DNA from: Somniosus microcephalus
Lineage: Eukaryota
Length of the DNA stretch: 64,000 bases
Assembly (NCBI GenBank): GCA_052327205.1
Contig: CM126218.1
Span: 43,834,001 to 43,898,000 of the forward strand
Reading direction: 5' to 3'
How positions within the stretch are numbered: position 1 is the stretch's first letter; every line of letters starts with the position of its first letter. Shown here piece by piece: positions 1,521-58,839 of the stretch. The notes beneath the pieces are model-generated. The model saw only the letters and a program-made list of their open reading frames with translations, was not told the origin of the DNA and did no database searches. The position numbers and the translations under genes are program-made.

Positions 1521-4500
1521 ATCCCCGTGCCCGTATGTCCCGAAGGCTCGCACTGTTCCCGGTCAATGTTCCCAGTGTCCGTGTGTCCCGAAGGCTCGCC
1601 CTGTTCCCAGTCAGTGTTCCCAGTGCCCGTGTGTCCCAAAGGCTCGCTCTGTTCCCGGTCAGTGTTCCCAGTGCCCGTGTGTCCCGAAGGCTCGCTCTGT
1701 TCCCGGTCAGTGTCCACAGTGTCCATGTGTCCCGAAGGCTTGCTCTGTTCCCGGTCAGTGTCCATGTGTCCAGAAGGCTCGCTCTGTTCCCGGTCAGTGT
1801 GCCCAGTGTCCGTGTGTCCCGAAGGCTCGCTCTGTTCCCGGTCAATGTCACCAATGCCCGTGTGTCCCGAAGGCTCGCTCTGTTCCCGGTCAGTGTTCCC
1901 AGTGCCCATGTGTCCCGAAGGCTCGCTCTGTTCTCGGTCAGTGTTCCCAGTGGCCGTGAGTCCCGAAGGCTCGCTCTGTTCCCGGTCAATGTCCCCAGTG
2001 CCCGTGTGTCCCAAAGGCTCGCTCTGTTCCCGGTCAGTGTCCCCAATGTCCGTGTGTCTCGAAGGCTCGCGCTGTTCCCGGGCAATGTTCCCAGTGCCCG
2101 TGTGTCCCGAAGACTCGCTCCCTTCCCGGTCAGTGTTCCCACTGCCCATGTGTCCCGAAGGCTCGCTCTGTTCCCAGTCAGTGTTCACAGTGTCCGTGTG
2201 TCCCGAAGACTCGCTCCCTTCCCGGTCAGTGTTCCCAGTGTCTGTGTGTCCCGAAGGCTCGCTCTGTTCCCAGTCAGTGTTCCCAGTGCCCGTGTGTCCC
2301 GAAGGCTCGCTCTGTTCCCGGTCAGTGTCCCCAGTGCCCGTGTGTCCCGAAGGCTCGCTCTGTTCCCAGTCAGTGTTCCCAGTGCCCGTGTGTCCCGAAG
2401 GCTCGCTCTGTTCCCGGTCAGTGTCCCCAGTGCCCGTGTGTCTCGAAGGCTCGCTCTGTTCCCGGTCAGTGTTCCCAGTGTCCGTGTGTCCCGAAGACTC
2501 GCTGCCTTCCCGGTCAGTGTTCCCAGTGTCCGTGTGTCCCGAAGGCTCGCTCTGTTCCCAGTCAGTGTTCCCAGTGCCCGTGTGTCCCGAAGGCTCGCTC
2601 TGTTCCCAGTCAGTGTTCCCAGTGCCCGTGTGTGCCAAAGGCTCGCCCTATTCCTGGTCAGTGTTCCCAGTGTCCATGTGTCCCGTAGGCTCGCCCTGTT
2701 CCCGGTCAGTGTCCCCAGTGTCCATGTGTCCCGAAGGCTCGCTCTGTTCCCGGTCAGTGTCCCCAGTGCCCGTGTGTCCCGAAGGCGCGCTCTGTTCCCG
2801 GTCAGTGTTCCCAGTGCCCGTGTGTCCCGAAGGCTCGCTCTGTTCCCGGTCAGTGTTCCCAGTGTCCATGTGTCCCGAAGGCTCGCCCTGTTCCCGGTCA
2901 GTGTCCCCAGTGTCCGTGTGTCCCGAAGGCTCGCCCTGTTCCCGGTCAGTGTTCCCAGTGTCCATGTGTCCCGAAGACTCGCCTGTTCCCAGTCAGTGTT
3001 CCCAGTGTCCGTGTGTCCCGAAGGCTCGCTCTGTTCCCAGTCAGTGTTCCCAGTGTCCGTGTGTCCCGAAGGCTCGCTCTGTTCCCGGTCAGTGTTCCCA
3101 GTGCCCGTGTGTCCCGAAGGCTCGCCCTGTTCCCGGTCAGTGTTCCCAGTGTCCATGTGTCCCGAAGGATCGCCCTGTTCCCGGTCAGTGTCCCCAGTGT
3201 CCGTGTGTCCCGAAGGCTCGCCCTGTTCCCGATCAGTGATCCCAGTGTCCATGTGTCCCGAAGGCTCGCCCTGTTCCCAGTCAGTGTTCCCAGTGCCCTT
3301 GTGTCCCGAAGGCTCGCTCTGTTCCAGCTCAGTGTCCCCAGTGTCCGTGTGTCCAGAAGGCACACTCTGTTCCCGGTCAGTGTTCCCAGTGTCCATGTGT
3401 CCCGAAGGCTAGCCCTGTTCCCGGTCAGTGTCCCCAGTGTCCGTGTGTCCCGAAGGCATGCTCTGTTCCCGGTCAGTGTTCCCAGTGTCCGTGTGTCCCG
3501 AAGGCTCGCTCTGTTCCCGGTCAGTGTCCCCAGTGCCCGTGTGTCCCGAAGGCTCGCTCTGTTCCCGGTCAGTGTTCCCAGTGTCCATGTGTCCTGAAGG
3601 CTCGCTCTGTTCCCGGTCAGTGTCCCCAGTGCCCGTGTGTCCCGAAGGCTCGCTCTGTTCCCGGTGAGTGTCCGTGTGTCCCGAAGGCTCGCCCTGTTCC
3701 CAGTCAGTGTCCCCAGTGTCCGTGTGTCCCGAAGGCTCGCTCTGTTCCTTGACAATGTCCCCAGTGCCCATGTGTCCCGAAGGCTCGCTCTGTTCCCGGT
3801 CAGTGTTCCCAGTGCCCGTGTGTCCCGAAGGCTCGCTCTGTTCCCGGTCAGTGTCCATAGTGTCCATGTGTCCCGAAGGCTCGCTCTGTTCCCGGTCAGT
3901 GTTCCCAGTGTCCATGTGTCCTGAAGGCTCGCTCTGTTCCCGGTCAGTGGCACCAGTGCCCGTGTGTCCCGAAGGCTCGCTCTGTTCCTGGTCAGTGTCC
4001 CCAGTGCCCGTGTGTCCCGAAGGCTCGCTCTGTTCCCGGTCAGTGTTCCCAGTGTCCGTGTGTCCTGAAGGCTCGCTCTGTTCCCGGTCAGTGTCCCCAG
4101 TGCCTGTGTGTCCCGAAGGCTCGCTCTGTTCCCGGTCAGTGTCCCCAGTGTCCGTGTGTCCCGAAGGCTCGCTCTGTTCCTGGACAATGTCCCCAGTGCC
4201 CGTGTGTCCCAAAGGCTCGCTCTGTTCCCGGTCAGTGTTCCCAGTGCCTGTGTCTCCTGAAGGCTCGCTCTGTTCCTGGTCAATTTCCCCAGTGCCCGTG
4301 TGTCCCGAAGGCTCGCTCTGTTCCCGGTCAGTGTTCCCAGTGCCTGTGTCTCCTGAAGGCTCGCTCTGTTCCCGATCAATGTCGATGCCGTTTCCCCAGT
4401 GCCTGTGTGTCCCGAAGGCTCGCTCTGTTCCCGGTCAATGTTCCCAGTGCCCATGTGTCCCGAAGGCTCGCTCTGTTCCTGGTCCATGTTCCCAGTGCCT

Positions 4501-4614
4501 GTGTCTCCTGAAGGCTCGCTCTGTTCCCGATCAATGTCGATGCTGTTTCCCCAGTGCCCGTGTGTCCTGAAGGCTCACTCTGTTCCTGGTCAATTTCCCC
4601 AGTGCCCATGTGTA
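1521..4614. repeat. 48-bp minisatellite, about 64 units (tgcccgtgtgtcccgaaggctcgctctgttcccggtcagtgttcccag)
   Basis: Direct tandem periodicity; ORFs in all frames show 16-aa repeats; variant higher-order block at about 4200-4610. Confidence 0.97.
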
Positions 4615-4889
4615 CTGAAGCGAACAACCAAAAAAACCATAGACTGCGCATGCAGAACTGCTTTAACTTCATTGGCAGCAGTCGCTACTTAAAAATAATT
4701 TCTATTTTAATTATAGATTTGAATTTTATGACCGGTCAATACACACAAAAACACAAAAAATTGTTTTCTCAATGATAGTATTCTTTACCTTGACAAGCTG
4801 ATTATGTTTGGATCACCTGAACTTCAGATTTTACAGTCCTGAAAAATCTTTACAAGTGCACAAGGTTACTGAGGAAAGCATCCTTGGGA

Positions 4890-9000: not shown

Positions 9001-9344
9001 TTCTTCCACTCTCACTGTAAAGTATAAATGAACACCTCATGATACTGATAGATTTAAGCCAACTATGAATAAAATTAGTAGAACCAAGTCATGTTAACAA
9101 CCGCAATTGAAATCCAGCTGGTTTCTAGCCCCTTGTACAGGTACTGGATTAGAATTTAACACTGTACTGCTTGGCCTAGAAATTCAGTTGCGTGCGCCAG
9201 CCGTTAGCGCCTTAAGAGGAGTAGACTTCGAGCGCTAGGCACTTAGCGGCCGGGCGCAGCGCGATCTGCGCCTGCGCCCAACTTCAGTAGACATTTAGCG
9301 CCGGCGCAAAGTGTTTGCGCGCGCTCAGCTGCGCGCGCAGCTTA

Positions 9345-9511
9345 TGACGTCATTTCGTCGTGCAACGCCCTTTGTGCACCCCAAACCGGAACTTCAGTCA
9401 CGCCCGCCCAATGTGGGCGTGGCGGTGCTAAGAACTGTGAAGTGGAACGCAGCAGAGGCCCTGCGGGCCTCGGGGAGCGCTAATTAAAGGGCACTTACAC
9501 TGAACTATAAA
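9345..9511 (+). promoter_or_regulatory. Putative transposase promoter
   Basis: CRE TGACGTCA at 9345-9352, CCAAT near 9408, TATAAA near 9506, upstream of ATG 9673. Confidence 0.5.
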
Positions 9512-9672
9512 GGCCAGCCATTTTGCTGCAATGACTTTTGTGCAACGGATTTCTGGACAGAGACCAAGGAAGAGACCTTACTGATTTGGCCCAACATAGG
9601 AGAGGTATTTTTGGCTTCTGGCCAGAGCTTGGCAATTTGCCTCATTGTGATTTCATTGTTTGCCAGTGTATT

Positions 9673-10818
9673 ATGGGGGCTGCATTGGGTGCCAACCCTC
9701 AGTTCCAGCATTATGTGCGAAGGGCTCGCAGACGCTGTGTGAGAGGGGCAGCCATGCCTAGACGCAGAGGGGGCATCAGGCGTCGGCAACGTAGGCCTTA
9801 CCCACTCAGGGAATACCGCCAGCAGGTGTCCTATCTCACCATGACTGCCGCGCAGTGTGTTAAGAGGCTGCGCTTCAGAAGGGAGGTGGTTGCAGAGATC
9901 TGCCAGCTGCTTCACAGAGATCTGCGTCCACAGCTGATGTGCAGGACGTCTCTGTCGGTGGAAGTGAAGGTCACGGTGGCTCTGAACTTTTATGCAAGTG
10001 GCTCCTTCCAAGCCGCTGCTGGGGACATAGCTAACATATCCCAGTTCGCCGTGCATCGCTGCATCCGGCAGGTCACCGATGCCCTTTTCACAAGGAGACA
10101 CCAATTCATCTCCTTCCCCATGACCCTGGAGAGGCAGGAGCAGCGTGCAGTCGGATTTGCGAGGATCGCGGACTTCCCCATGGTGCAGGGTGCCATTGAC
10201 TGCACGCATGTGGCTTTGCGGGCACCTATCGACAATGCCGAGGATTACCGCAACCGGAAGGGCTACCATTCCCTCAATGTACAGCTGGTGTGTGACAACA
10301 GGCAGCGCATCCTAGCTGTCAATGCCCGCTTTCCAGGCAGCAGCCACGATGCATTTATCCTGCGCCAGACTACTGTGGCTGACATGTTCCAGGCACAGCC
10401 TCCCCCAAGAGGATGGCTTATCGGGGACAAAGGCTATCCTTTGTGTACATGGCTCATGACCCCGCTCCGCGCGCCCAGGACCCCTGCTGAGGAGGCATAC
10501 AACGAAAGCCATCAAGCCACAAGGAACATCATAGAGCAAACGATTGGCGTCCTCAAGCAACGGTTCCGCTGCCTGGACTGCTCCGGCGGATCTCTGCAGT
10601 ATTCGCCGGATAGAGTCTCCCAGTTCGTCGTCGTTTGCTGCATGCTGCACAACCTGGCTATCCGCAGGACTCAGGCACTGCCACCTCACGTTGGACCACC
10701 ACCTCAGGAGGAGGAGCAGGAGGACCATGAGGAGGAGGAGGAGGAGGAGTACCAGCCCAGGAGGGAGCCACAAGGTCCAAGGGCCGTCCGTCGGCGGCTT
10801 ATTGAACGACACTTCTAG
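9673..10818 (+). CDS. Harbinger DDE transposase (HARBI1-like), intact, 381 aa from the first ATG
   Basis: Motifs GAIDCTHV, NRKGYHSLNVQLVCD, FPGSSHDAFIL, LIGDKGYP, RNIIEQTIGVLKQRFRCL, CCMLHN; the track start at 9538 is a TTG. Confidence 0.93.
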   Translation: MGAALGANPQFQHYVRRARRRCVRGAAMPRRRGGIRRRQRRPYPLREYRQQVSYLTMTAAQCVKRLRFRREVVAEICQLLHRDLRPQLMCRTSLSVEVKVTVALNFYASGSFQAAAGDIANISQFAVHRCIRQVTDALFTRRHQFISFPMTLERQEQRAVGFARIADFPMVQGAIDCTHVALRAPIDNAEDYRNRKGYHSLNVQLVCDNRQRILAVNARFPGSSHDAFILRQTTVADMFQAQPPPRGWLIGDKGYPLCTWLMTPLRAPRTPAEEAYNESHQATRNIIEQTIGVLKQRFRCLDCSGGSLQYSPDRVSQFVVVCCMLHNLAIRRTQALPPHVGPPPQEEEQEDHEEEEEEEYQPRREPQGPRAVRRRLIERHF

Positions 10819-10931
10819 GCCTCCTGTCAGGGAATGGCTTGTGGCAATGAAGGGACATGAATGCAGCCGCTCCGCAAGCCCTCAGCCGGTTAACGCAACA
10901 ACCACTTCAAACATCAAACATGGACAAGCTG

Positions 10932-10951
10932 AATAAAGAAAAAGCTTTATT
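10932..10951. terminator. Back-to-back poly(A) signals for the two convergent Harbinger genes
   Basis: AATAAA (+) at 10932-10937 and TTTATT (AATAAA on -) at 10946-10951. Confidence 0.65.
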
Positions 10952-11376
10952 GAACAAACTCAGGGCCCTTCCCACATGAAACCCAAAAACAGACAACACC
11001 CCCAAAAAACAGTCAAACACATGACTCACTCCCACAACCTGGGGAGGGATAACAAAACTTTTCCATCCAAATGGCCTTCATCCTCGGCCTTACCAAAACA
11101 ACCACCCCCATAGACAACACAACCACCCCCATATAAAAAAACATTTGGCAACACCCTCTACTTTGTGTGCCAAGAGGGCGAGTCCTTGTCCAGCCTTTTC
11201 CGGCCCCGGCCGACCTGCTGCTCCGCCTCAACCTGGGCCCTGTGGGTGCTGCAAGGCTGGGGGAAGGCTCCTGAGGGGCACATGGCGTGACGGCAGATGC
11301 CCTTGGGGGTCGGCCTAGATGAGCTCTGGCCCTCGAGGAGCCGGCTGCTGACTGCTGCAGCTGTGGCTGGGCAGCA

Positions 11377-12314
11377 TCAGTCTCTCCAGCAGCTCGTGGC
11401 AGCTTCACTGGGGGAGTGGCAGTGGCGGCTGCAGCAATGGGGGCAAGCTGGCTGATGCCAGGCGCTCGCTGCTCGCCTGAGACACTGGCACTCGGCCGGG
11501 CTGGCACTGCAGCATGCGCAGCAATCTGCTGAAGGCCAGACCACTGTGCCCTGGTGATGCCTGGCTGACACAGCGAATGTGGCAGCAGTGAGTGCCCGTA
11601 CTGCCCTGGTCTGTGCCCGCATCAGACCAGCCAGTGACTGCACGGCACCACTGATCAACTGGCCACTCGCTGCCTGTGCTGCCCTGAAGTCGTCCCGACT
11701 CGCGTCCTGTGCTGCCCTGAATTCGGCCCGACTCGCGTCCTGTGCTGCCCCGAATTGCTCGAAACCCCTGGCCTGTGCTGCCCCGAGTTGCTCGAAACCC
11801 CTGGCCTGTGAGGCCCCGAAATCGGACACACTATGAGCCAGGGACTCGATGGCCTCAGGCAACCATGCCACAACCCCCATGAACTCGGTGTGCCGGCGAT
11901 CCGAGTCCGCGGACATTTGATCGAGGAGGCGCACCTCCTGGGCGAGGACCGTCTCCGGACTGGAGGCTGGACTCTCCCTCTGGGGAGAAGGCCGCCGAGC
12001 TGCCCGACCCTTCCCACGTGGCTGGACGCCACTGGGCCCAGCAACTACACTCCCCTGCAACACTTCCCCCCTCTGGGGAGAAGGCCGCCGAGCTGGCCGA
12101 CCCTTCCTGCGTTGCTGGACACCACTGGGCACAGGAGCTACACCCCCCTCCGACACTTCCCCCTGGCTCTCCTCCAGGGAAGACGTGTCCCCTCCATTGC
12201 CATCCCCTGGCGCGGATGAGGGTTCCCCCGATGGGCCGCCTTCCTCTTGCTCCTCCTCGTCCTCCTCTTCCGAGGGACTGTCACTGGCAGCTTCAGGGAC
12301 CTCCTCCTCACCAG
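11377..12314 (-). CDS. Harbinger Myb/SANT protein, exon 3 (acidic tract, repeats, coiled coil; probable frameshift near 11520)
   Basis: Acceptor cctgctttcag is phase-compatible and runs into ORF 11377-12156; low-complexity tail appears to continue in ORF 11013-11507. Confidence 0.72.
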
Positions 12315-12473
12315 CTGAAAGCAGGAAGGCACAAGAGTAGCTTTAGAGTGAGGACAGGGCGTCAGCGAGGGAGGCATGAGTGGTGACATTCAGCGCATTG
12401 GTCAGACAGTGGCAAAGGATGTAGATCTGAAGTGCAAGGGGAACGAGAGAGGTCCAAAAGGTGATGTCCTTAC

Positions 12474-12636
12474 CATTGGGGCCCAGCACAGGGTCGGCAT
12501 CTCCAGATGCAACGGGGCCAATCAGCCGGCCACCCATGAATCGACCCACGCGCTCCTCCAGGTCACTGAGCTGCTGGAACTGGGGACGGCCTCCCCCGGT
12601 ATCAGTCCGGCTCCTCAGATTCTGGGCCAGCTTGGC
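12474..12636 (-). CDS. Harbinger Myb/SANT protein, exon 2
   Basis: Acceptor tctcttgcag, in frame AKLAQN...TGGGRP...LSDLEERV, donor GTAAGG, phase 1. Confidence 0.82.
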
Positions 12637-12664
12637 CTGCAAGAGAAAGGACGGCCTCTAAGTA

Positions 12665-12887
12665 CAGTGTGGTGCCCTGTTGTTGTGTGCACTGCCTCCC
12701 ATGGTCGAATAGCTTGGCCAGTGTGGTGCCCTGTTGTTGTATGCACTGCCTCCCATGGTCGAATAGCTTGGCCAGTGTGGTGCCCTGTTGCTGTATGCAC
12801 TGCCTCCCATGGTCGAATAGCTTGGCCAGTGTGGTGCCCTGCTGCTGTATGCACTGCCTCCCATGGTCGAATAGCTTGGCCAGTGTG
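12665..12887. repeat. 54-bp tandem repeat x4 in intron 1 of the Myb gene
   Basis: cagtgtggtgccctgttgttgtgtgcactgcctcccatggtcgaatagcttggc repeated four times. Confidence 0.93.
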
Positions 12888-13029
12888 TAAAGTGCAGAAA
12901 GTGCAATTGATGTTCATGCCAGTGCCATAGCTGCTGGATGAGGGCTGGCCATTAGGGCTTTGAGGTCCCTTTGCCCATAATGTGAGGTGCACATGCAAGG
13001 ATGAGGAGGACACTGGAAAGGGTACTCAC

Positions 13030-13266
13030 CCTAACAATCCGAGTGAGGTCGTTAAACTTTTTCCGGCATTGGACACCAGTCCTGGGGACATCGCAGGTGG
13101 CTGTGACCCTCTGGGCGACATCCCTCCAGGCTTTCCTGTACACCCTGGTGGCAGGCTTCTTGCCACTGTCCGGGAACAAGATATGGCGTCTCCTCTCCAA
13201 AGCCCTAACCAGCACCTTTAAGTCATGGGCAGAGAAGCGCTGCGCTCGCTCACGGGCCCTCTGCAT
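13030..13266 (-). CDS. Harbinger Myb/SANT-like DNA-binding protein, exon 1
   Basis: RFSAHDLKVLV...AWRDVAQRV...RTGVQCRKKFNDL (MSANTD/NAIF1-type trihelix); donor GTGAGT, phase 0. Confidence 0.88.
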
Positions 13267-14163
13267 CCTTCCTGGCGCTATTTCTCTCCAGCAGCAGTGT
13301 TTAGGCCTAGCTGGAGGGCTGCAGTATCCAGGGCGTGGCAGCAGACCAAGTCGACCCTTCCCCCTTTAAGAGCTGGCCGGCGCCAGGGTGTCTGCTGTCA
13401 ATCAAGAAATGACCGCACCTGCGCTGCGCCCGGCCTCGGCGGTATCACTCTGCACCGCCGGCTTAGCGCCTAAAGATAGCCGTGCATCGCCAGTTTTAGC
13501 GCTCGAGCAAACTCCTTGGCCAAAGCTACTGAATATCGGCGAAGTGGCCTCCACTTTGCGCCGGGTGCAAACTTTAGCGGCCGCCCGACTTTACCGCCCC
13601 AAAAGTGGCTATACTGAATTTCTAGGCCAAGATGCCATGCAAACACTGCAGTCGTTCAGATACAGTTTCGATCAGTTGTTCACACGACTTTAGATTTGCT
13701 CTTTCAATGTGGTATCATGCAGGTCACTCTGATGGAGCACAGGGTACTCTTCTGTCATTAGAAATGGCAATAACAATCACTTCATCTGAGTAAAAACTCT
13801 TAAAGAGAATTCATTGCAGTGAAATTGGCAGCTATTTCTACTGACTCCCGAAACAAACGTTTGTCAAGCATTTTTTTCATAAAGAGAAAATTCCTTGAAT
13901 ATTTCAGCCAAACATTTTAGGTCTGGGTAGGTATCAGTATAATCTTTAAAGCTGTGTTATTATCTTATTGGGATGGAGAAATGTTGCACTATTTTAAAAC
14001 CTTGGAATTACTAACTTGGTGATGATGCGAGCAGTAATGTCCAAGGGAGCAGTGAAGTGTGAATTATTTGCAATTGTTCAAGTAATAATTTTAATGTGCT
14101 TGAAATGTACTCTCCTCAGCAAACCCCATTATTTTGAGGATCAGTATAGATTTATATCCTTAT

Positions 14164-20933: not shown

Positions 20934-21658
20934 TCCAGGAATTTTTCAGAAAATCACCATTTTGATTTTTTTGCAGCTAATGGTTTGTTGGAACACTTTT
21001 CCATAATATTAATGTAAAGATATTCCATGACAAATTATTATTCACATGCTATTCACTAAACCCAGTTAACCTAAAAATGTTTCTAAATCAAATGTCACAT
21101 TACTGTATTTACAAAAAGTATAAATACCAAAATATAGTTTCCATTAAATTCTGCTTGGACAAACTGTATCCCTGTTAACCAGACCAGCATCTACATTTCT
21201 ACCGATCTTAAAAAATTATAGGCCTAGAAATTCAAACTTCTAGCGCCGGCCGGTTTTGAAGAAAAATGACGCGGAACGCGGGGGCTGCCATATTGGGCAG
21301 GTCGGCAGCGCTGCCGTTGCCTGCACTTGCCGCAAGTATTTTAATTGCTAGGAATGTGACATCAATTGGCGTGCAACGCCGAGTTGACGCACGCTCATCG
21401 ATTTTGGACATCGCCGCTTCTCTTACCGCCCTCTCCAAAGCACGCCAGTGCGTTTAGCCATTGACAGTGTGTAGAGCCGGGAGAAAGCGGCGGTGAGCTA
21501 TAAACCATACAGTGAACAGCTGCTGAGATAACTGGTAACTATGAAGAGCTCAGACTATGTAATTGGAGTGAAAACTGCTTCCAGTGAGAGGCATCAAATC
21601 TCCCCCCATGTCAATTAAACATTACAGGAGGTAAATACTTTTAAAAATAAACTATACT

Positions 21659-22857
21659 GCAGTCGGGAGAGCAGGAGGCCAGTAACTGGTGAGTTTAAAA
21701 GCTCACCTTTCGGGGGCTTTTTCTTTCACAGCTGGGGCAGTCGGGAGAGCAGGAGGCCAGTAACTGGTGAATTTAAAAGCTCACCTTTCGCGGGCTTTTT
21801 CTTTCACAGCTGGTGCAGTCGGGAGAGCAGGAGGCCAGTAACTGGTGAGTTTAAAAGCTCACCTTTCGGGGGCTTTTTCTTTCACAGCTGGGGCAGTCGG
21901 GAGAGCAGGAGGCCAGTAACTGGTGAGTTTAAAAGCTCACCTTTCGGGGGCTTTTTCTTTCACAGCTGGTGCAGTCGGGAGAGCAGGAGGCCAGTAACTG
22001 GTGAGTTTAAAAGCTCACCTTTCGGGGGCTTTTTCTTTCACAGCTGGTGCAGTCGGGAGAGCAGGAGGCCAGTAACTGGTGAGTTTAAAAGCTCACCTTT
22101 CGCGGGCTTTTTCTTTCACAGCTGGGGCAGTCGGGAGAGCAGGAGGCCAGTAACTGGTGAGTTTAAAAGCTCACCTTTCGCGGGCTTTTTCTTTCACAGC
22201 TGGGGCAGTCGGGAGAGCAGGAGGCCAGTAACTGGTGAGTTTAAAAGCTCACCTTTCGCGGGCTTTTTCTTTCACAGCTGGTGCAGTCGGGAGAGCAGGA
22301 GGCCAGTAACTGGTGAGTTTAAAAGCTCACCTTTCGGGGGCTTTTTCTTTCACAGCTGGTGCAGTCGGGAGAGCAGGAGGCCAGTAACTGGTGAGTTTAA
22401 AAGCTCACCTTTCGGGGGCTTTTTCTTTCACAGCTGGTGCAGTCGGGAGAGCAGGAGGCCAGTAACTGGTGAGTTTAAAAGCTCACCTTTCGGGGGCTTT
22501 TTCTTTCACAGCTGGGGCAGTCGGGAGAGCAGGAGGCCAGTAACTGGTGAGTTTAAAAGCTCACCTTTCGCGGGCTTTTTCTTTCACAGCTGGGGCAGTC
22601 GGGAGAGCAGGAGGCCAGTAACTGGTGAGTTTAAAAGCTCACCTTTCGCGGGCTTTTTCTTTCACAGCTGGGGCAGTCGGGAGAGCAGGAGGCCAGTAAC
22701 TGGTGAGTTTAAAAGCTCACCTTTCGCGGGCTTTTTCTTTCACAGCTGGGGCAGTCGGGAGAGCAGGAGGCCAGTAACTGGTGAGTTTAAAAGCTCACCT
22801 TTCGCGGGCTTTTTCTTTCACAGCTGGTGCAGTCGGGAGAGCAGGAGGCCAGTAACT
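21659..22857 (+). repeat. 78-bp tandem monomers x15 plus a partial unit (CR1 5' end)
   Basis: gcagtcgggagagcaggaggccagtaactggtgagtttaaaagctcacctttcg(g/c)gggctttttctttcacagctgg(g/t); period exactly 78. Confidence 0.97.
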
Positions 22858-23154
22858 CTTATATAGGTGGAGCTGTTGCTAAACCCGAAACACTACAGTG
22901 TAGTGTCTCCCACCCTTCCACCTCCTCTAACCTTTTAGGGGTTAGGGGAAGTTGAAAAGGTAGGTTCAATTTATTTTATTTCAGGAGCCTAACCTAGGTG
23001 GAAAAGGTTCCAGGACAGGAGGCGGCAGTGAAAATACAACACCAGAAAACAGGTAGGTGACTGGTTGGTGAGTACTTTCACAAACTTATTCTAAGTAGAA
23101 TTCAATAATTAAGCTAAATCGTAGTAAATAAAAGGGTATTGTAAGGGTTAAGTC

Positions 23155-24093
23155 ATGGAAGGGCAGCTCGGACCCGTGTCATGCTCCTCCTGTGCCATGT
23201 GGGAAATCAGGGACACTGTCCCTGACAACTATGTGTGCAGGAAGTGTGTCCAGCTGCAGCTCCTAGCGGACCGCATGGCGGCGCTGGAGCTGCGAATGGA
23301 CTCACTCTGGAGCATACGCGATGCTGAGGATGTTGTGGATAGCACATTCAGTGAGTTGGTCACACCGCAGGTAAAGGCTAGCTCAGACAGTAAATGGGTG
23401 ACCAAAAGGCAGGGTAAAGGCAGGAAGGTAGTGCAGGAGTCACCTGCAGTCATCTCCCTCCAAAACAGGTTTACCGTTTTGGGTACTGTTGGGGGAGATG
23501 ACTTATCAGGGGAAGGCACCAGCAGCCAGGTTCAGGGCACCATGACTGGCTCTGCTGCACAGAAGGGCGGGAAAAAGAGGGATAGGGCTATAGTGATAGG
23601 GGATTCAATTGTAAGGGGGATAGATAGGAGTTTCTGTGGCCGAGACCGAGACTCCAAGATGGTATGTTGCCTCCCTGGTGCAAGGGTCAAGGATGTCTCG
23701 GAGCGGGTGCAGAGCATTCTGAAGGGGGAGGGGGATCAGCCAGTTGTCGTGGTACATGTAGGTACCAACGATGTAGGTAAAAAGAGGGAGGAGGTCCTAC
23801 AAGCTGAATTTAGGGAGTTAGGAGCTAAATTGAAAAGTAGGACCTCAAAGGTAGTAATCTCTGGATTGCTACCAGTGCCACGAGCTAATAAGTTTAGAGA
23901 GAGTAAGATAGATAAGCTAAATACGTGGCTTGAGCAGTGGTGCAAGGGAGAGGGATTTAAATTCTTGAGGCATTGGAACCAGTTCTTGGGGAGGAGTGAC
24001 CTGTACCAAGGGGATGGTCTACACCTGAACTGTGAGGGAGCCGATGTCCTCGGGGTAATATTTTCTAGGGCGGTTCGGGAGGATTTAAACTAA
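23155..24093 (+). CDS. CR1 ORF1: zinc finger/leucine zipper plus SGNH esterase
   Basis: CSSC..CRKC then heptads; GDSIVR, CLPGARV, HVGTND, DGLHL blocks. Confidence 0.93.
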   Translation: MEGQLGPVSCSSCAMWEIRDTVPDNYVCRKCVQLQLLADRMAALELRMDSLWSIRDAEDVVDSTFSELVTPQVKASSDSKWVTKRQGKGRKVVQESPAVISLQNRFTVLGTVGGDDLSGEGTSSQVQGTMTGSAAQKGGKKRDRAIVIGDSIVRGIDRSFCGRDRDSKMVCCLPGARVKDVSERVQSILKGEGDQPVVVVHVGTNDVGKKREEVLQAEFRELGAKLKSRTSKVVISGLLPVPRANKFRESKIDKLNTWLEQWCKGEGFKFLRHWNQFLGRSDLYQGDGLHLNCEGADVLGVIFSRAVREDLN

Positions 24094-24140: not shown

Positions 24141-27050
24141 ATGAAGTCAGAAATAGATGGTAGAAAGGTGAGAAGCAATAAGCAAAGGAGAGAAACACAA
24201 AGGGCCAAACTAATTCATAATGAGAGTGTGAAAAAAGCAAGCCTGAAGGCTTTGTATCTTAATGCTAGAAGCATTAGGAACAAGGTGGATGAATTAGTTG
24301 TGGAAATAGAGGTAAACAAGTATGATTTGATTGGGATTACAGAAACGTGGCTGCAGGGTGGGCAAGGCTGGGAACTTAACATCCAGGGATATACAATATT
24401 TAGGAAGGATCGGCAAAAAGGTAGGGGAGGTGGGGTAGCATTGCTGGTAAAGGAGGGGATTAATGCAATGGAAAGGAAGGATATTAACTCAGATGAAACG
24501 GAATCTGTATGGGTAGAAATGAGAAATAGCAAGGGGAGGAAAACGTTAGTGGGTGTGATATATAGGCCTCCAAATAGTAATATGGAGGTGAGGGAAGGCA
24601 TAAAAAGGGAAATTAGAGAAGCGTGCGATAAGAGCACAGCTGTCATCATGGGTGACTTTAATTTACATATTGATTGGACTACCCAAATTAGTAAAAATTC
24701 TGAGGAGGAGGAATTCCTGGAATGTTTTCGGGACGGTTATCTGGACCAATATGTCGAGGAGCCGACTCGAGATCAGGCCATTTTAGACTGGGTATTGTGC
24801 AATGAGAAGGGACTTATCAGCAATCTTCTTGTACGAGGCCCCTTGGGTCAGAGCGATCATAATATGATCGAGCTCTCAGTCGAGATGGAGAGTGAGGAAA
24901 TTGAATCCGAGACTAAGGTCCAGAACTTAAATAAAGGGAATTACGAGGGTATGAGACGGGAATTGGGTAAGGTTGATTGGGTGGTGTTTCTGGGGGGATT
25001 GACAGTGGATAGACAATGGCAAGCATTCAAAGATAGAATGGAAGAATTCCAGAACATGTTTATACCGGTTTGGCATAAAAATAAACCTAAAAAGGTGACT
25101 CAACCGTGGATAACGAGGGAAATTAGGGACAGCATAAAATCAAAAAAAAGGGCATATCAACTGGCAAAAAAAAGCACCAGACCGGAAGCTTGGGGGCAGT
25201 ACAGGATACAGCAAAAGAGGACAAAGGGATTAATCAGGAAGGGGAAAATAGAATACGAAAGTAAACTTGCAGCAAACATAAAGACAGACTGCAAAAGCTT
25301 TTATCGGTATATCAGGAGGAAAAGACTGGTAAAATCCCAAGTCGGTCCCTTGCAGTCCGATTCGGGAGAATATATAATGGAGGATAAGGAAATGGCAGAC
25401 CAATTAAACTCATACTTTGGTTCTGTATTCACAAAGGAGGACACAAATAACCTCCCAGGAATATCGGCAAACATAGGGACTAATGAGAGGGAGGAGCTGA
25501 CAGAAATTAGTATCTCTAGGGATATGGCGTTGGGTAAGTTGAGGGGACTGAAGGCCGACAAATCCCCGGGGCCTGATAAACTACATCCTAGGGTACTTAA
25601 GGAGGTGGCCCTGGAGATAGCAGATGCTCTAAGGATCATCTTCCGGAACTCCATTGACTCGGGAACAGTACCCGTGGATTGGAGGGTAGCTAATGTTACC
25701 CCAATATTTAAAAAGGGGGGTAGAGAGAAAGCAGGGAATTATAGACCAGTAAGCCTTACATCGGTTGTGGGCAAAATGCTAGAGTCCATTATTAAGGATA
25801 AAATAGCGGAGCACTTGACAAATGGGGAAAAGATCGGACAGAGTCAACATGGATTTACAAAGGGTAAATCGTGTTTGACTAATCTGCTGGAATTTTTTGA
25901 GGAAGTAACTGGTAAAATAGATGGGGGAGAGCCAGTGGATGTGGTGTACCTTGACTTCCAGAAAGCCTTCGATAAGGTTCCACACAAAAGATTATCATGC
26001 AAAATTAAGGCTCATGGGATTGGGGGCAAAGTATTAACGTGGATAGAGAACTGGCTGGCGGATAGAAAACAGAGAGTTGGAATAAACGGCTCGTTTTCGG
26101 AGTGGCAGGCAGTGACCAGCGGGGTGCCGCAAGGATCTGTCCTGGGACCCCAGCTGTTCACAATATATATAAATGATCTGGATCAGGGAATTGGATGCAA
26201 TATTTCCAAATTCGCTGACGACACTAAACTAGGAGGAGGGGTGGGCTCTGATGAGGATGTCAGGAGGCTACAGTGCGATTTGGACAGGTTGGGGGAATGG
26301 GCGGATACGTGGCAGATGCACTATAATGTGGATAAATGCGAGGTTATCCACTTTGGGGGTAAAAACAGGAGGGTAGATTATTATCTAAATGGCAATAGAT
26401 TGGGAGATGGGGAAGTGCAGAGGGACCTGGGTGTTCTTGTGCACCAGTCACTGAAGGAGAGCATGCAGGTGCAACAGGCGATTAAGAAGGCAAATGGTAT
26501 GTTGGCCTTCATATCAAGGGGGTTCGAGTATAGGAATAGGGATACCTTACTACAGCTGTACAAGGTGCTGGTGAGACCGCATCTGGAGTATTGTGTACAG
26601 TTTTGGTCGCCCCATCTGCGGAAGGATGTTCTTGCCATGGAAAGAGTGCAACGGCGATTCACCAGGCTGATACCTGGAATGGCGGGAATGACCTACAAAG
26701 AGAGATTAAATAGTTTGGGCTTGTACTCACTGGAGTTTAGAAGATTGAGAGGGGATCTCATCGAAACATATAAAATTATGGCAGGCCTGGACAGGCTGAA
26801 TTCAGAGAGAATGTTTCCAATGGCCGGGGAGCACAGAACCAGGGGCCACAGTCTAAAAATAGCGGGCAAATCATTTAAAACAGAGATGAGGAAGAATTTC
26901 TTCACTCAAAGAGTGGTGAGCCTGTGGAATTCCCTGCCACAGAGGGCTGTGAAGGCTAATTCAATAAATATTTTCAAGAGAGAATTGGATATATTTCTGA
27001 AGGCTAAGGGGATTAAGGGTTACGGAGAAAAGGCGGGGACGGGGTACTGA
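24141..27050 (+). CDS. CR1 ORF2: AP endonuclease plus reverse transcriptase, uninterrupted 969 aa
   Basis: YLNARS, ITETW, YRPP, MGDFN, SDH; KSPGPD, NYRPVSL, YLDFQKAFD, GVPQGSVLGP, FADD. Confidence 0.97.
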   Translation: MKSEIDGRKVRSNKQRRETQRAKLIHNESVKKASLKALYLNARSIRNKVDELVVEIEVNKYDLIGITETWLQGGQGWELNIQGYTIFRKDRQKGRGGGVALLVKEGINAMERKDINSDETESVWVEMRNSKGRKTLVGVIYRPPNSNMEVREGIKREIREACDKSTAVIMGDFNLHIDWTTQISKNSEEEEFLECFRDGYLDQYVEEPTRDQAILDWVLCNEKGLISNLLVRGPLGQSDHNMIELSVEMESEEIESETKVQNLNKGNYEGMRRELGKVDWVVFLGGLTVDRQWQAFKDRMEEFQNMFIPVWHKNKPKKVTQPWITREIRDSIKSKKRAYQLAKKSTRPEAWGQYRIQQKRTKGLIRKGKIEYESKLAANIKTDCKSFYRYIRRKRLVKSQVGPLQSDSGEYIMEDKEMADQLNSYFGSVFTKEDTNNLPGISANIGTNEREELTEISISRDMALGKLRGLKADKSPGPDKLHPRVLKEVALEIADALRIIFRNSIDSGTVPVDWRVANVTPIFKKGGREKAGNYRPVSLTSVVGKMLESIIKDKIAEHLTNGEKIGQSQHGFTKGKSCLTNLLEFFEEVTGKIDGGEPVDVVYLDFQKAFDKVPHKRLSCKIKAHGIGGKVLTWIENWLADRKQRVGINGSFSEWQAVTSGVPQGSVLGPQLFTIYINDLDQGIGCNISKFADDTKLGGGVGSDEDVRRLQCDLDRLGEWADTWQMHYNVDKCEVIHFGGKNRRVDYYLNGNRLGDGEVQRDLGVLVHQSLKESMQVQQAIKKANGMLAFISRGFEYRNRDTLLQLYKVLVRPHLEYCVQFWSPHLRKDVLAMERVQRRFTRLIPGMAGMTYKERLNSLGLYSLEFRRLRGDLIETYKIMAGLDRLNSERMFPMAGEHRTRGHSLKIAGKSFKTEMRKNFFTQRVVSLWNSLPQRAVKANSINIFKRELDIFLKAKGIKGYGEKAGTGY

Positions 27051-28324
27051 ACTGGTAAGATCAGCTATGATCTCAGACGAAGATCAGCCATGATCTCATT
27101 GAATGGCGGAGCAGGCTCGAAGGGCCGAATGGCCTACTCCTGTTCCTATCTCTATGTTTCTATGTTTACTACTGTTGTAAGAATCTCAGGAAAAAAAATT
27201 AAAGCTGCATTTCCTTAAATTTTATAAATTGGGTATTCGATAAAATAATATGCAAAGTTTTGAAGTCTGTTTTTAAAAGTCCAAGAATTAAGAAAGATTT
27301 AACACCATATTCTCATCAAGAGTTCTTCAAAAGCCTGTTGCTATTAAAAAGTTAAGTAAACTCTCTTCTGCACAATTTACACCTGTAAACTCGTGACCAA
27401 GAGTTCATGTTTCCCTTTTCTAAAAATGTATTTCAATTGATTTCTTATGCAATGGTTTAATGACATCTATGTCACAGTCTTTCACTGTTAATAGGTGATT
27501 GCCTGAGAATGCAGCACCAAACCTTTACTCGCGACCTTCGGCCTCCTGCTGATTTTACCGCCGGAAAGAGTACATTGCACGGGAGCTTCTGCGCTGCGCT
27601 CATTTAAATCAGCAGGCAGCACCAAAACATCGATGCTGCCTGCGCTCTTTTTGCAGGCGGCCGCTAACCTTGGCCCGCGATGACACTTGTTCGGGCTTAA
27701 TCGAATTTCTAGGCCTCTATCTTTGTTTTCATTTCCATTAAAAAATAACCCTGGCCGCCACATAAAAATCAGACTACCTTTACAGTTAGTCGTCTCAATT
27801 GGCATGGCTACAGACACACCAAACAATGACAGACTTCTGTATCTTGGCAAATAAAAAGAAGCAATAGCATCTTACAGTATCATGAAATCCTATTTTATTG
27901 CTCAGTGTCCACTTCCGCCATCTGCTGCTGCTACACCAGTCTTCCCAAGTCTTGATTGTAAATTTGGTACTTTGTTAAGGGGGGGAGTTATTTAATAAAA
28001 GTGTCTAGAGTTTGAATTAATGCTTCTCATTGGGCTTTATCATTGAAAACATATGTTGACAATGATTTTATTGATTAATAAATGCGATTAAGTATGTAGG
28101 AAATGTTCTGAGTTCACCAAAAATCCCTACAAATCTTGTGAGCATCTACCAGTTTCCACTGACCCTGCTCATTTACAAGCAACACACATATTTCTTTTTT
28201 TTTTACATAAAATGATCTTGAAATAGATCAATATTTTTTTACATTGTAGTTTATTCATATGCTGCCCCTATCCCAAAGATCCACGTCTACTGACTGCATC
28301 ACTGCAAAGTAGATGAGGCCTATA

Positions 28325-53685: not shown

Positions 53686-54046
53686 GGCTCCTGTTATTCT
53701 CATGGCTCCTGTTACTCCCCTGGCTCCTGTTATTCCCCTGTCTCCTGTTACTCCCCTGGCCCCTGTTATTCCCCTGTCTCCTGTTACTCCCCTGGCTCCT
53801 GTTATTCCCCTGTCTCCTGTTACTCCCCTGGCTCCTGTTATTCCTCTGTCTCCTGTTATTCCCCTGGCTCCTGTTACTCCCATGACTCCTGTTACTCCCC
53901 TGTCTCCTGTTATTCCCCTGTCTCCTGTTACTCCCCTGGCTCCTGTTATTCCCCTGTCTCCTGTTACTCCCCTGGCTCCTGTTATTCCCCTGTCTCCTGT
54001 TACTCCCCTGGCATCTGTCACTCAGCTGGCTCCTGCTATTCCAGTG
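53686..54046. repeat. 18-bp satellite, left block (gctcctgttactcccctg)
   Basis: Tandem periodicity; continues after the Gypsy insertion. Confidence 0.95.
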
Positions 54047-54730: not shown

Positions 54731-54891
54731 GAGGCACGCAGGAAAACGCGCAGAGCGCGGCCGGTGTTCAAGGGCTGAGCAGCGTCCGCGGGGGAAGAAA
54801 GGAAAGCGCGGGAGACGCCATTTGGGCCGCAGCGGAGAAGAAGGGAGAGTGCGGGAGATGCCATTTTTAGCCAGTCTAACCACACCCAGGG

Positions 54892-57800
54892 ATGACGAAG
54901 AGTGGCAGTGTCACAGCGTTCGACAATGAAGTCGAAGATTGGGCGACATATGTAGAACGCATAGAAGTGCACTGCAAGGCGAATGAAGTGCCAGATGCCA
55001 GGAAAGCACTGGTATTGTTGAATTCCATGGGTGCAAAAACGTATGGCTTACTGCGAAACCTAGTAACCCCAGAGAAGCCAGTGGAAAAGGATTTTGAAAG
55101 CATAGTGGCAATCCTACAGGACCACTTAAACCCCACACCGCTGCTGATAGCAGAAAGATATAAGTTTCACAAAAGGAACCAGCATAAAGACGAAAGTAAT
55201 ACTGAGTATTTAACGGAACTGCGCAAGCTATCGAAACACTGCCAGTTTGGAACGGGACTAGCAGATACTTTAAGGGACAAGTTTGTGTGTGGGCTTCAAA
55301 GTGAAGGGACCCAGAAACGGCTTCTATCAGAAAAGGATCTTACGCTGGACAAGGCTTTCAGCATGGCAGTATCACACGAAGCAGCCGCACGGGGCGCTGC
55401 AGAGATACAACGGAGACCGCAAGAATATGGCACAAATGAAATGTCATATGGAGCAGTGAAGTGTTATCGCTGCGGCAGAACAACACACGACCATAATGAT
55501 TGTTGGTTCAAGGACGAAGTGTGCAGACAGTGTGGAAAAGTAGGACACACAGCAAGAGTCTGCAGGTCTGGAAAGAAAACCAGCAGCAAGAAATCTCCAC
55601 AGGAGAAGTACAAAAAGGTACATAAGGTGACGGAGAGTAGTTCAGACGAACAGAAAAGTGATACAGACTCCGGAAGCAAGGAGCTGAGTTGTCTGAAACT
55701 ACATAATGTAATCAAAATGGAGGATCGCCAAACTATCTGGGTCATGCTCAAGATAGATGGAGTCCAAGTGAAAATGGAATTGGACACAGGATCAGCCCTA
55801 ACAGTCATAAACCGAAGGGACTACAAGCGGCTATTCTCACATATACCCTTGAGAGATACAGAGATTGTCTTGAAGACGTACACGGGGCAAAAAGTCTACC
55901 CCAAAGGAAAAATAAGGGTGAACGTTATATATAACGGCAAGGAAACACCAAAAATGGACCTATATGTATTGCCAGATGGAGGACCACCACTACTAGGACG
56001 TGAATGGATCCGGAAGATACAGCTCGATTGGCATTCCATACAAGCACTGACTGTAGATGCCAAAAAGGATGACAACGTCACACCTGGACGACTGTCAAAA
56101 ATGCTAACTGACGCACAAGAAGCATTCCAGGAGGGACTCGGAACACTAAAAGGTATAACAGCGATGATCAAAATCGAGGAAAATGCAAGCCCAAAGTTTT
56201 TTAAGGCCAGACCGCTGCCTTATGCGATCCGCCCAGCCGTCGAAGCAGAGCTGGAAGGTTTGGAACGTTCTGGAGTACTGTCCAAAGTGGACTGGAGCGA
56301 GTGGGCTACACCCATCGTTCCTGTAATGAAGAGGTCGTTGAGTAATACGCCTGGGGAACCAAAGAAGGTTCGCATCCATGGGGACTTTAAGGTGACAGTG
56401 AACCCAGTCCTTCACACGGTACAATATCCACTTCCGCGGATTGAAGATATTTTCGCCTCACTATCTGGAGGGAAACGCTTCACTAAGATTGATCTGGCCC
56501 AGGCGTACCTGCAAATGGAGGTAGAAGAAGCCTCGAAACAGTACCTCGCGATCAACACTCACAAAGGTCTCTAACAATACAATCGGCTGGTGTTCGGGGT
56601 AGCATCAGCTCCGGCTATTTGGCAAAGGGCAATGGATCAAGTCCTGCAAGGGATTCCAGGGACCCAGTGTTATTTGGACGACATCCTGGTCACGGGCGAA
56701 AATGACAGTGATCACCTCGCCAACCTGGAGCAGGTGCTCACTAGATTGAAGGAATATGGGCTCCGAGCTAATCGCCACAAATGCGAGTTTTTCCAGAAGC
56801 AGATCTCGTATTGTGGCCACGTTATTGATAAAGAGGGGTTACATAAGTCCCCTGAAAAGATTGAGGCAGTAGTCAAGGCTCCAGCACCGGAAAATGTGTC
56901 ACAACTGAGGTCATTCCTCGGGCTGGTGAACTACTACCATAAGTTCTTGCCGAATTTGTCTACAGTACTACACCCACTGAACACCCTACTGCAAACGGGG
57001 GTACCATGGAAGTGGAATGACGAATGTAAACGAGCTTTCCAGATGTGCAAAGAATTGATCACATCAAAAGAGGTGTTGGCTCATTTCAACCCAGCACTAG
57101 CAATTCGGTTGGCGTGTGATGCATCACCCCATGGTATTGGAGCGGTGCTGTCGCACAAATTCCCAGACGGCTTGGAGAGGCCAGTAGCCTTTGCGTCTCG
57201 GTCACTAACCTCAGCCGAATGTAACTACGCCCAGATTGACAGGGAGGCCCTCAGCCTAGTGTGGGGAGTGAAAAAGTTCAACCACTATCTGCACGGGCAG
57301 AAGTTCACCTTGCTGACTGACCACCAACCACTTGTCTCCATCTTTAATCCAAAGAAGGGCGTTCCGGTGATGACTGCGCAACGGCTACAAAGATGGTCCC
57401 TCTTTCTAGGGGCGAACCAATATGAAATCGAGTATAAGGGCACGAAACAGCATCAAAACGCTGATGGGCTATCACGCCTGCCACTGCCTACTGCGGAGGA
57501 AGCGCCAGCAGTGGACCCTGTCGAAATATTTCATTCGACTATAATTGAACACTTGCCAGTAACTAACGCGGATATAGAGAAGGAGACCCGAAATGACCCG
57601 ACACTGTCTCAGGTATATGATTTGACGGTGAAGGGATGGCCAACACATGGCAACTCACTGTTGCCAGCATTCTCATCCAGAAGAGAACAGCTGTCAGTAT
57701 GCCAGGGGATCTTGATGTGTGGATCCCGAGTGGTAATTCCACCCAAGTTAAGGGAGAGAGTGCTCAATGAGCTTCACGAAGGCCATCTGGGAGGGGTGAA

Positions 57801-58839
57801 AATGAAAAGCCTTGCTAGGGCTTATGTGTGGTGGCCGGGGATCGATCAGCAAATCGAGGACCTGACAAAGAGCTGCTCAGGATGCCAGAGGTTCCAAAAT
57901 GCACCACCACATGCCCCTCTTCACCCATGGGAGTGGCCCTCCTCTCCATGGCAACGGGTGCATATTGATTTTGCTGGTCCATTCATGGACTCAATGTTCT
58001 TAATAGCCGTGGATGCGCACTCAAAATGGCCTGAGGTGATCAAAATGTCCTCCACCACCACGGAGAAAATGATTGCAGTCCTACGGACCATATTTGCCAG
58101 GAACGGCTTGCCAGAGCAGATTTGCTCTGATAACGGACCACAGTTTGTGTCCGAAGAGTTTCGGAAATTTATGAGAAGGAATGGGGTAAGGCATTACACG
58201 TCCGCCCCGTAGCATCCAGCCACAAATGGATTGGCTGAGAGGTTCGTACAAACCTTTAAAAAGGCAGTAAGGGCCATGTGCGATGACGACATTCCACTGC
58301 AGCATAAGGTGGACAATTTCCTGTTAGCCTACAGAAATGCGACACATGCAGTTACCAACCAGACCCCGGCCATGATGTTCTTTAACCGAAGGTTGAGATC
58401 TCGTCTGGATTTGCTCAGACCCAATGTACGAAGAAATGTTAAGAATAAGCAATTCCAGCACATCAATGAGAAGCCGACAAGGAGCTTCAATGTAGGGCAA
58501 CCAGTCTTGGCCCGCGACTACCGAACAGAGAAATGGCAACCAGGAACGATATACACACGGCAGGGGCCACTAATGTACACAGTGGATGTTGGGGAGAACA
58601 TTGTGAGACGCCATGTCGACCAGATCCTAGCGTCACAGGAACGAGTCAACCCCATGTCTCGTGTACCTGGTGATGAACCCGACATACCGGTAGCATCTAC
58701 CCCAGAAACAGTAGCATCGGAATCTGATGAACCAACTGACGACAGGGGGGCAGAATTGCCTCCGCACCAAGAGCAAGACACTCAGGAAAGGCGCTATCCA
58801 GAAAGGATCAGGAAGCCGCCCCAAAGACTGAATTTATAA
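54892..58839 (+). pseudogene. Single-frame gag-pol with two premature stops
   Basis: Two CCHC knuckles, protease LDTGS, RT YLDD, RNase H DAS, integrase HHCC and DDE; stops at 56572-56574 and 58210-58212, all three ORFs in one frame. Confidence 0.95.

Follow-up and report, generated by a model that had tools for sequence, protein, structure and literature searches.

In mouse L1 elements (Tf, A and Gf; L1spa), tandem 5′ monomers and a tether precede ORF1, and splice donors and acceptors have been predicted within the monomers. Such splicing has been credited for 22 genomic copies, and monomer splicing is reported to shorten daughter elements (PMC9022269, citing Belancio 2006). Monomeric 5′UTRs are known in L1 of mouse, rat, horse, elephant, opossum and hyrax. 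Human L1 SpIREs are alike in that 5′UTR splicing can hand a shortened promoter to daughters, but they involve a single non-repeated promoter and long introns, are dead ends, and contain no repeated exon–intron unit (PMC5860796). Vertebrate CR1-group elements encode an esterase ORF1 and an APE-RT ORF2; 5′ repeating subunits (1–5 units of 100–500 bp) have been noted only for members lacking ORF1, and the text mentions neither promoters nor splicing (PMC13343379). CR1 leaders of chicken, turtle and pufferfish contain E-boxes, a noted CR1 promoter feature, and 32-bp direct repeats (PMC2734521). At human promoters, the U1 motif has been classed as a promoter motif that is strand-specific and exerts its effect after initiation; mature RNA increases when a donor lies close behind the start (10.1101/2023.06.27.546584).

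A search of mostly open literature, judged mainly from titles and outside Repbase, found no description of exon–intron monomers or conserved donors in CR1 leaders. Functional splice sites were reportedly found by Tamura, Kajikawa and Okada in 2007 in another CR1-group LINE, zebrafish ZfL2-1/ZfL2-2, which differs from the element considered here in belonging to the L2 clade.

Here we analyze a CR1 element within a 64,000-nt stretch of Somniosus microcephalus DNA (the window), using initiator, telescripting and branch window as general interpretive notions. Whereas mouse L1 belongs to the L1 clade and has ~200-bp monomers with cryptic sites in only some of them, the window CR1 carries a strong, closely spaced, hairpin-hidden site set per unit (donor in 14 of 15), in a design that recurs across sharks and rays. 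Unlike the described CR1-group elements, it combines 15 units of 78 bp with an ORF1 and a splice-signal architecture. It shares with promoter-proximal U1 sites and telescripting a donor shortly after the start (10.1101/2023.06.27.546584). A preliminary description had presented splicing across units as undescribed for CR1; we found no CR1 account in the portions of the literature consulted, but the kind has already been reported for mouse L1.

An intact CR1 element headed by a monomer array

The element comprises the following features:

21655..21659, plus strand: candidate target-site duplication, 5′ copy (TACTG), the longest exact word common to both ends (5 bp)
21659..22857, plus strand: monomer array, period 78, 15.4 copies, 98% matches (Tandem Repeats Finder)
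21660..21667, plus strand: 5′ end at the putative initiator CAGTCGGG, adjoining the candidate duplication and present again in every unit
23155..24093, plus strand: ORF1, 312 aa, with CxxC-x14-CxxC, a coiled-coil-like stretch and an SGNH esterase
24141..27050, plus strand: ORF2, 969 aa from the first ATG, uninterrupted, with AP endonuclease and reverse transcriptase
27051..27167, plus strand: 3′ UTR, with stem-loops and then two copies of an 8-bp repeat (CTATGTTT) at the end
27170..27174, plus strand: candidate target-site duplication, 3′ copy, with two extra bases between tail and repeat

Judging from its ORF1 matches and the likeness of its leader and ORF1 to consensus rows labelled CR1, we class the element as an intact CR1-clade LINE; as an intact, young copy, it is a ready substrate for a retrotransposition assay. 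The array consists of 15 full units and a 29-nt partial unit ending one base short of the donor. Cut in register, the units vary at only three positions, a private donor change in unit 2 and two shared sites. With ORF1 and ORF2 intact, the claim of an intact CR1 headed by 15 near-identical 78-bp monomers is borne out. The array stands at the extreme 5′ end and is joined to ORF1 by a tether, as in mouse L1-type promoters; unlike a mammalian monomeric promoter, it has no CpG-island character (CpG o/e 0.48, equal to background). The candidate 5-bp direct repeat encloses array and ORFs and places the 5′ end at a unit's CAGT; it is suggestive rather than firm because two extra bases stand at its 3′ side. 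The 3′ end, a stem-loop and short tandem tail with no poly(A), resembles other 3′ ends in the window.

The ORF1 domain is SGNH/GDSL (Pfam Lipase_GDSL_2, E 5e-13), and the top named of its 77 homologues come from sharks and rays, at identities of up to 69%, which by itself makes a cartilaginous fish very likely as host. Among the 41 homologues with the Cys motif, its spacer is 16 in 32 and 14 in 5; the window CR1 has 14. By eye, within the first 400 nt of the rows, the closest consensus at the ORF1 start is SquAca_CR1-11. ORF2 contains Pfam RVT_1 and Exo_endo_phos, with all checked catalytic motifs present. Nothing array-like was found in the N-terminal extensions of ORF1 homologues, a GTDB scan with the ORF1 alignment passed 3 of 32 candidates (all bacterial SGNH hydrolases at 23–24%), and plasmid tblastn gave no match. 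A subgenomic ORF2 mRNA was dropped as a candidate: the AG at 24068 scores below 6 bits, and related rows have no tract there. Among the proteins retrieved, P0011, a CR1 ORF1 59% identical to ours, carries the NCBI label of a Pseudomonas aeruginosa SGNH hydrolase, its 4-kb contig being probably fish DNA inside a bacterial assembly, and P0079 is an apparent CRISPR array translated as protein among the cluster representatives.

No other copies of the monomer were found within the window. The array is open in one frame over 415 codons (21619–22866, plus strand) with no start codon and no related protein; against 1.84 billion cluster representatives, its peptide gave nine matches, all unrelated repeats.

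Other mobile and repetitive DNA surrounds the element. A Harbinger-like DNA transposon at 9173–13628 carries terminal inverted repeats of 16 bp, and its DDE_Tnp_4 frame at 9535–10818 is open for 427 aa. The same terminal repeat word recurs at 21221 and 27704–27715, facing inward, 440 and 545 nt from the CR1; the CR1 could be nested within a single non-autonomous element, but no target duplication is shared. A Gypsy-type LTR retrotransposon gag-pol (protease, RT, RNase H, integrase) occupies 54880–58839 in three frames split by stops, flanked by long 18-bp arrays at 53686–54035 and 59144–61582. At 1522–4620 lies a 48-bp minisatellite of 64 copies with long open frames, whose best donor and acceptor score 9.6 and 8.2 bits.

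The units carry strong splice signals, predicted to be hidden in a hairpin

The signals of unit 1 are arranged as follows:

21688..21707, plus strand: donor/anti-donor hairpin, 8 bp, whose 3′ arm is at once the branch-like motif and the minus-strand donor
21689..21731, plus strand: mini-intron, 43 nt; its donor stands at +29 counted from the initiator A, and its branch-like A, at 21705, is followed by a pyrimidine tract and CAG; recurs every 78 bp to 22823
21729..21734, plus strand: E-box CAGCTG, overlapping the acceptor in 15/15 units
21732..21766, plus strand: exon-like segment, 35 nt, purine-rich (69% purine), recurring every 78 bp

The donor CTG|GTGAGT had been assigned to every monomer; it is present in 14 of 15, with unit 2 reading GTGAAT. 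The described lengths of a 43-nt intron and a 35-nt exon without ATG hold, ATG being absent from the whole 1,495-nt leader, and an acceptor does follow the pyrimidine tract in all 15 units. Scored with approximate weight matrices, the unit donor reaches 10.1 of 12.9 bits (14/15 units) and the acceptor, the strongest in the element, 13.0 of 16.1 bits; acceptors of equal score occur three times in 116,800 nt of remaining window. With the array counted as one unit, both site scores were reached in 15 of 20,000 circular dinucleotide shuffles, and both scores plus the branch motif in 2 of 20,000. Neither a mini-intron nor a donor-hairpin design was found in 12 other window arrays or at any place in the 116,800 nt; this control used 13 of 26 tandem-repeat rows, leaving out micro-repeats and duplicates.

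Pairing of the donor with the branch segment, which would hide the donor, is indeed predicted (8 bp, −9.8 kcal/mol). In the five units scored, folding prediction gives the donor an unpaired probability of at most 0.02; the hairpin is predicted in each of four array folds, and unit folding z-scores range from −2.2 to −3.3. Against a predicted U1 duplex of −9.2 kcal/mol, the competition would be balanced. The minus-strand donor expected from symmetry occurs in 15/15 units. GTRAG has CTYAC as its reverse complement, a word that itself fits the branch consensus. The branch motif therefore adds no independent evidence, and hairpin, branch-like word and minus-strand donor amount to a single fact rather than three.

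The signals expected of a U2-type intron are all in the unit: a strong donor, a pyrimidine tract, YAG and a branch motif, the last tied to the hairpin, with its branch-like A 27 nt upstream of the exon. U2-type donor-to-branch spacing is lacking within the unit (16 nt) and present across units (94 nt and more). A length of 43 nt does, as had been noted, lie below the usual vertebrate intron minimum, yet 43-nt human introns do get spliced, the known one being atypical and G-rich (PMC4463651). Human introns of 43–56 nt exist, and none of the 22 human ultra-short introns has all three signals strong (PMC4463651), whereas the window unit has all three, together with a 16-nt donor–branch gap and a self-complementary arm. 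For comparison, 27 nt separate donor and branch in the 56-nt intron of HNRNPH1, which does splice (10.1101/784868). The tighter constraint on the window unit is the 16-nt distance rather than the 43-nt length. Splice geometry across units is normal, and all strong acceptors of the window CR1 sit in its leader.

A unique leader separates the array from ORF1

Downstream of the array, 297 nt of the 1,495-nt leader are unique:

22860..22866, plus strand: TATA-like element, directly 3′ of the array
22877..22933, plus strand: tether block of TAAACCC, a variable-loop hairpin (22890–22906) and a C-rich tract, also present in shark CR1 consensus rows
22960..22984, plus strand: second mini-intron-like segment, 25 nt, donor 10.2 bits, acceptor 11.2 bits
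23053..23073, plus strand: two donors as a pair (23053, 23068); the element has no strong acceptor beyond them
23127..23132, plus strand: AATAAA hexamer, 60–75 nt 3′ of the paired donors, the first of seven sense polyA hexamers (two antisense)

The further splice signals that had been placed before ORF1 are all there (donors at 22960, 23053 and 23068, acceptor at 22984). The best acceptor downstream of 23068 scores only 7.5 bits, compared with 11–13 in the leader, and the paired donors therefore have no good partner inside the element. By eye, in the consensus 5′ ends, a TA-rich motif stands at the matching place in SquAca_CR1-7, ScyCan_CR1-11a and RhiTyp_CR1-2a/-7/-8; the tether block is near-identical to that of RhiTyp_CR1-2a; a donor, T-rich tract and AG follow the tether block in ScyCan_CR1-11a/-7a, SquAca_CR1-7 and RhiTyp_CR1-2a; and SquAca_CR1-3/-15a/-15b/-18 carry a near-identical paired-donor motif. 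Across 22860–22933, the arrangement of a TATA-like site ~30 nt upstream of a conserved hairpin and C-rich tract is common to several shark CR1 families. The TATA-like site at 22860 is possibly a second, internal start that would give a short leader beginning with the stem-loop.

A hammerhead assignment for the tether hairpin was dropped, its core being absent, and Rfam returned six matches, all far under their gathering scores (best E 0.88), with no known structured RNA or 5′ ribozyme. Depletion of upstream ATGs in the unique leader (0 against 6.1 expected) was likewise dropped as a signal, the antisense control being equally depleted (0 against 4.4).

The design recurs in shark and ray CR1 families

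Relatives were compared by eye and unaligned, over the first 400 nt of consensus 5′ ends in the supplement of PMC13343379. All 71 CR1 rows of white shark, spiny dogfish and catshark were read; 35 that start inside ORFs or have a leader under ~150 nt were dropped, and 36 kept. Further CR1 rows came from whale shark, sawfish, skate (6), elephant shark (6) and stingray (17).

At least 13 of the 36 shark leaders have tandem 5′ monomers of about 33–300 bp, and 31 of 36 contain a sense G|GTRAGT, against ~0.07 expected per 400 nt, in families that are related rather than independent. These donors are often paired and adjoin CRE- and CCAAT-like words; many of the pairs have no usable acceptor after them, and most leaders have no antisense partner. 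A donor-hairpin module (donor, mostly A-rich loop, CTYAC/TTCAC-type arm) occurs in ten families of four species: CarCar_CR1-14, ScyCan_CR1-6/-11a/-16/-19, RhiTyp_CR1-2a/-7/-8/-11 and PriPec_CR1-4. Its variants include GTGAG/CTCAC, GTAAG/CTTAC and G.U forms (CarCar_CR1-14, RhiTyp_CR1-8, PriPec_CR1-4), and the CTTAC arm persists with imperfect pairing in three families (ScyCan_CR1-11a, RhiTyp_CR1-7 and -11). In six of the ten, a pyrimidine tract and YAG follow 27–67 nt from the donor; in the other four the acceptor is missing and the donor kept. Donor-to-AG spacing in relatives drifts from about 21 to 67 nt. The A of CTYAC lies inside the normal branch window in four of five cases checked (RhiTyp_CR1-2a, -11, ScyCan_CR1-11a and the window CR1, not ScyCan_CR1-6).

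ScyCan_CR1-6 repeats two mini-introns within a 153-bp monomer, RhiTyp_CR1-7 strings together three exon-donor units, and LeuEri_CR1-1 (skate) and PriPec_CR1-10 (sawfish) recognizably share the 3′ pyrimidine tract and CAG block of the window intron. The four whale shark module families include those with the most intact ORF2 copies, for example CR1-8 with 298 of 881; young families also yield the best 5′ consensus. Four white shark types have monomers with no donor in the unit (CarCar_CR1-1, -4, -5, -7a), and the 17 stingray rows contain donors, with no hairpin module seen within the first 400 nt. Over the whole consensus set, all clades pooled, donor words number 127 sense and 90 antisense against 30 in permuted controls, a mild strand bias. 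The CR1 rows of coelacanth, softshell turtle and tuatara are mostly degenerate and uninformative.

Related 5′ designs are also seen in the L2 rows CalMil_L2-1, LatCha_L2-1a/b/c and PelSin_L2-1: coelacanth and turtle L2s repeat a donor-like word, followed in coelacanth by T-rich tracts. The word CAGTCGGG also opens, by eye, the monomers of CalMil_L2-1 from elephant shark.

These likenesses support assigning the array to the element as a family-level trait. It is hardly credible that the array is a local minisatellite whose splice-like words arose by chance and have nothing to do with the biology of the element: the window holds no second copy, the exact 78-mer is absent from the first 400 nt of all consensus rows consulted, the peptide matched only unrelated repeats and a genome scan tests many repeats, but homologous exon–intron units occur in CR1 consensuses of whale shark, catshark, white shark, sawfish and skate, with tethers in CR1s of these five other species, the shuffle and window controls stand against chance, and the candidate target-site duplication encloses the array.

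Promoter units that may recruit U1

Anatomy, non-random signals, family-level recurrence and the absence of splice scars from the array of this copy are established. By analogy with L1, a role of the array as an internal promoter is plausible. Tentatively, and short of calling it probable, we favor a renewable internal promoter whose units recruit U1 and so increase full-length output, with hairpin and spacing blocking most splicing and array collapse as a by-product. Like the monomers of mouse L1, the array would act as a renewable Pol II promoter. Every unit would contribute an initiator, then 28 nt of first-exon-like leader and, at +29, a U1 site. Factors bound to the adjacent pyrimidine tract and AG would help U1 to bind the emerging RNA, which would favor elongation and suppress early cleavage at the polyA hexamers of an A-rich element; the anti-donor arm would then close over the donor. 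With this closure and a branch-like A only 16 nt away, we propose that the unit would rarely splice on itself. Most RNA would remain full length, so that daughter copies inherit the promoter, and low-rate cross-unit splicing would yield promoter-shortened, SpIRE-like copies as a by-product; the main determinants of copy number would be the choice of start site, 5′ truncation and unequal recombination. Promoter activity, U1 binding, an effect on elongation or polyadenylation and a low splicing rate are in each case what we infer.

Across families, the sense donor near the start is constant while acceptor and spacing vary, which fits U1 recruitment as the selected function. In the same direction, the element starts at a unit's CAGT after the candidate target-site duplication, and AATAAA stands just 3′ of the paired donors. 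CREB and NF-Y motifs, which are promoter motifs (10.1101/2023.06.27.546584), both adjoin donors in CR1 relatives. Against U1 recruitment, the hairpin is predicted to leave almost no donor exposed at equilibrium, which means that U1 would have to prevail by kinetics, and the CTTAC arm persists in three families despite imperfect pairing. The acceptor, too, is poorly explained, given a tract and CAG shared with skate and sawfish CR1s and the A of CTYAC in the branch window in 4/5. The weak library-wide strand bias, the four donor-less monomer families and an array that is not a CpG island also count against it. Evasion of HUSH by intron mimicry carries little weight, as splice sites alone and a small intron are unprotective (PMC8770142).

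Alternative roles for the splice signals

Productive 5′UTR splicing, the main alternative, is rather unlikely, though it would account for several features. An early-unit donor would join an acceptor at least one unit further on or the one at 22984 (121, 199 ... 1,296 nt), the spliced RNA serving as mRNA that has lost its hairpin-rich leader and the unspliced RNA, trans-mobilized via its 3′ tail, as template; the hairpin would set the ratio of the two, and daughters with collapsed arrays would be common. With every strong acceptor in the leader, splicing could never cut the ORFs. Scanning would be hampered by fifteen stem-loops, each predicted at ~−30 kcal/mol. In 6/10 hairpin families the donor, a branch-window CTYAC, the tract and YAG occur together, with 34–46-nt purine-rich exons, and some related units (54–67 nt) are long enough, a 56-nt human intron with a 27-nt gap being spliced (10.1101/784868). 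Recognition of the 3′ tail allows such LINEs to mobilize other RNAs (PMC3747384), and we propose that proteins from the spliced RNA could therefore mobilize the unspliced one. L1spa offers a precedent (PMC9022269).

Yet the window CR1 has 0 of 15 junctions spliced, and no exon–exon concatemer was seen by eye in the first 400 nt of the consensus rows consulted. L1 daughters that arise from splicing no longer have promoter activity (PMC5860796), paired donors without an acceptor are the signals found most widely, and a short leader could come from the TATA-like site at 22860 with no splicing at all. The preliminary description had linked splicing to promoter copy number; that splicing determines the number of monomers finds no support in this copy, the window containing no exon–exon junction word. 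The two shared variable sites occur in all four haplotypes and units vary as whole 78-mers, a pattern that indicates DNA-level recombination (unequal exchange) or template switching. The underlying observation holds and is broader than had been recognized; its link between splicing and copy number is unproven in this copy, with a precedent in L1.

A two-RNA, retrovirus-like program in shark and ray CR1s, driven by a tandem exon–intron promoter, we consider unlikely. A hairpin switch would pick between unspliced, promoter-carrying and spliced, translated RNA, tail-dependent trans-mobilization would couple the two, and splicing would trim an array that recombination regrows.

It is distinctly doubtful that the units are DNA-level bidirectional promoter motifs, the inverted repeat forming two opposed U1 or factor sites for sense and antisense transcription and the acceptor arising as a by-product of a T-run beside an E-box, with no RNA hairpin or splicing role. 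The minus-strand donor does score equal to the sense donor, the E-box overlaps the AG in 15/15 units, and strand bias over the whole consensus set is weak; a human L1 donor is kept because it lies inside a RUNX3 site (PMC5860796), and mouse monomers show antisense activity (PMC9022269). Nevertheless, YAG is kept in relatives without an E-box (RhiTyp, PriPec_CR1-4, LeuEri_CR1-1), loop length ranges from 4 to about 25 nt, and sense donors lack an antisense partner in most shark leaders. G.U-type changes occur in three families and in the window CR1, the mirror A.C at +3 in 0/10, numbers too few to be firm.

Improbable, finally, is a promoter and exon trap, in which host read-through transcripts would splice into the acceptors and donors would splice to host exons, borrowing expression. 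With an acceptor, 35 nt and a donor, every unit does form a clearly delimited short exon, and chimeric splicing of zebrafish L2 is said to have been seen by Tamura in 2007. In chicken, a long transcript has its start in a CR1-H leader and loses that leader by splicing (10.64898/2026.03.19.712899). Trapped transcripts, however, would not rebuild the 5′ end, whereas the window CR1 starts exactly at a unit start, and a trap needs neither fifteen copies nor a hiding hairpin.

Implications for CR1 biology

Since LINEs copy their own RNA, they are assumed to lack introns; Pol II output nonetheless depends on splice signals. A CR1 lineage with strong, hairpin-guarded splice signals in an inherited promoter would be one way round that conflict, and the 78-bp unit offers a compact, testable system for whether U1 binding without splicing drives retroelement expression. 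Were the two-RNA program true, the host spliceosome would tune the promoter strength of daughter copies, and a LINE lineage would have kept functional introns since the shark–ray split. CR1-group elements make up 22–34% of elasmobranch genomes (PMC13343379), and their 5′ donors and acceptors could therefore also shape host transcripts.
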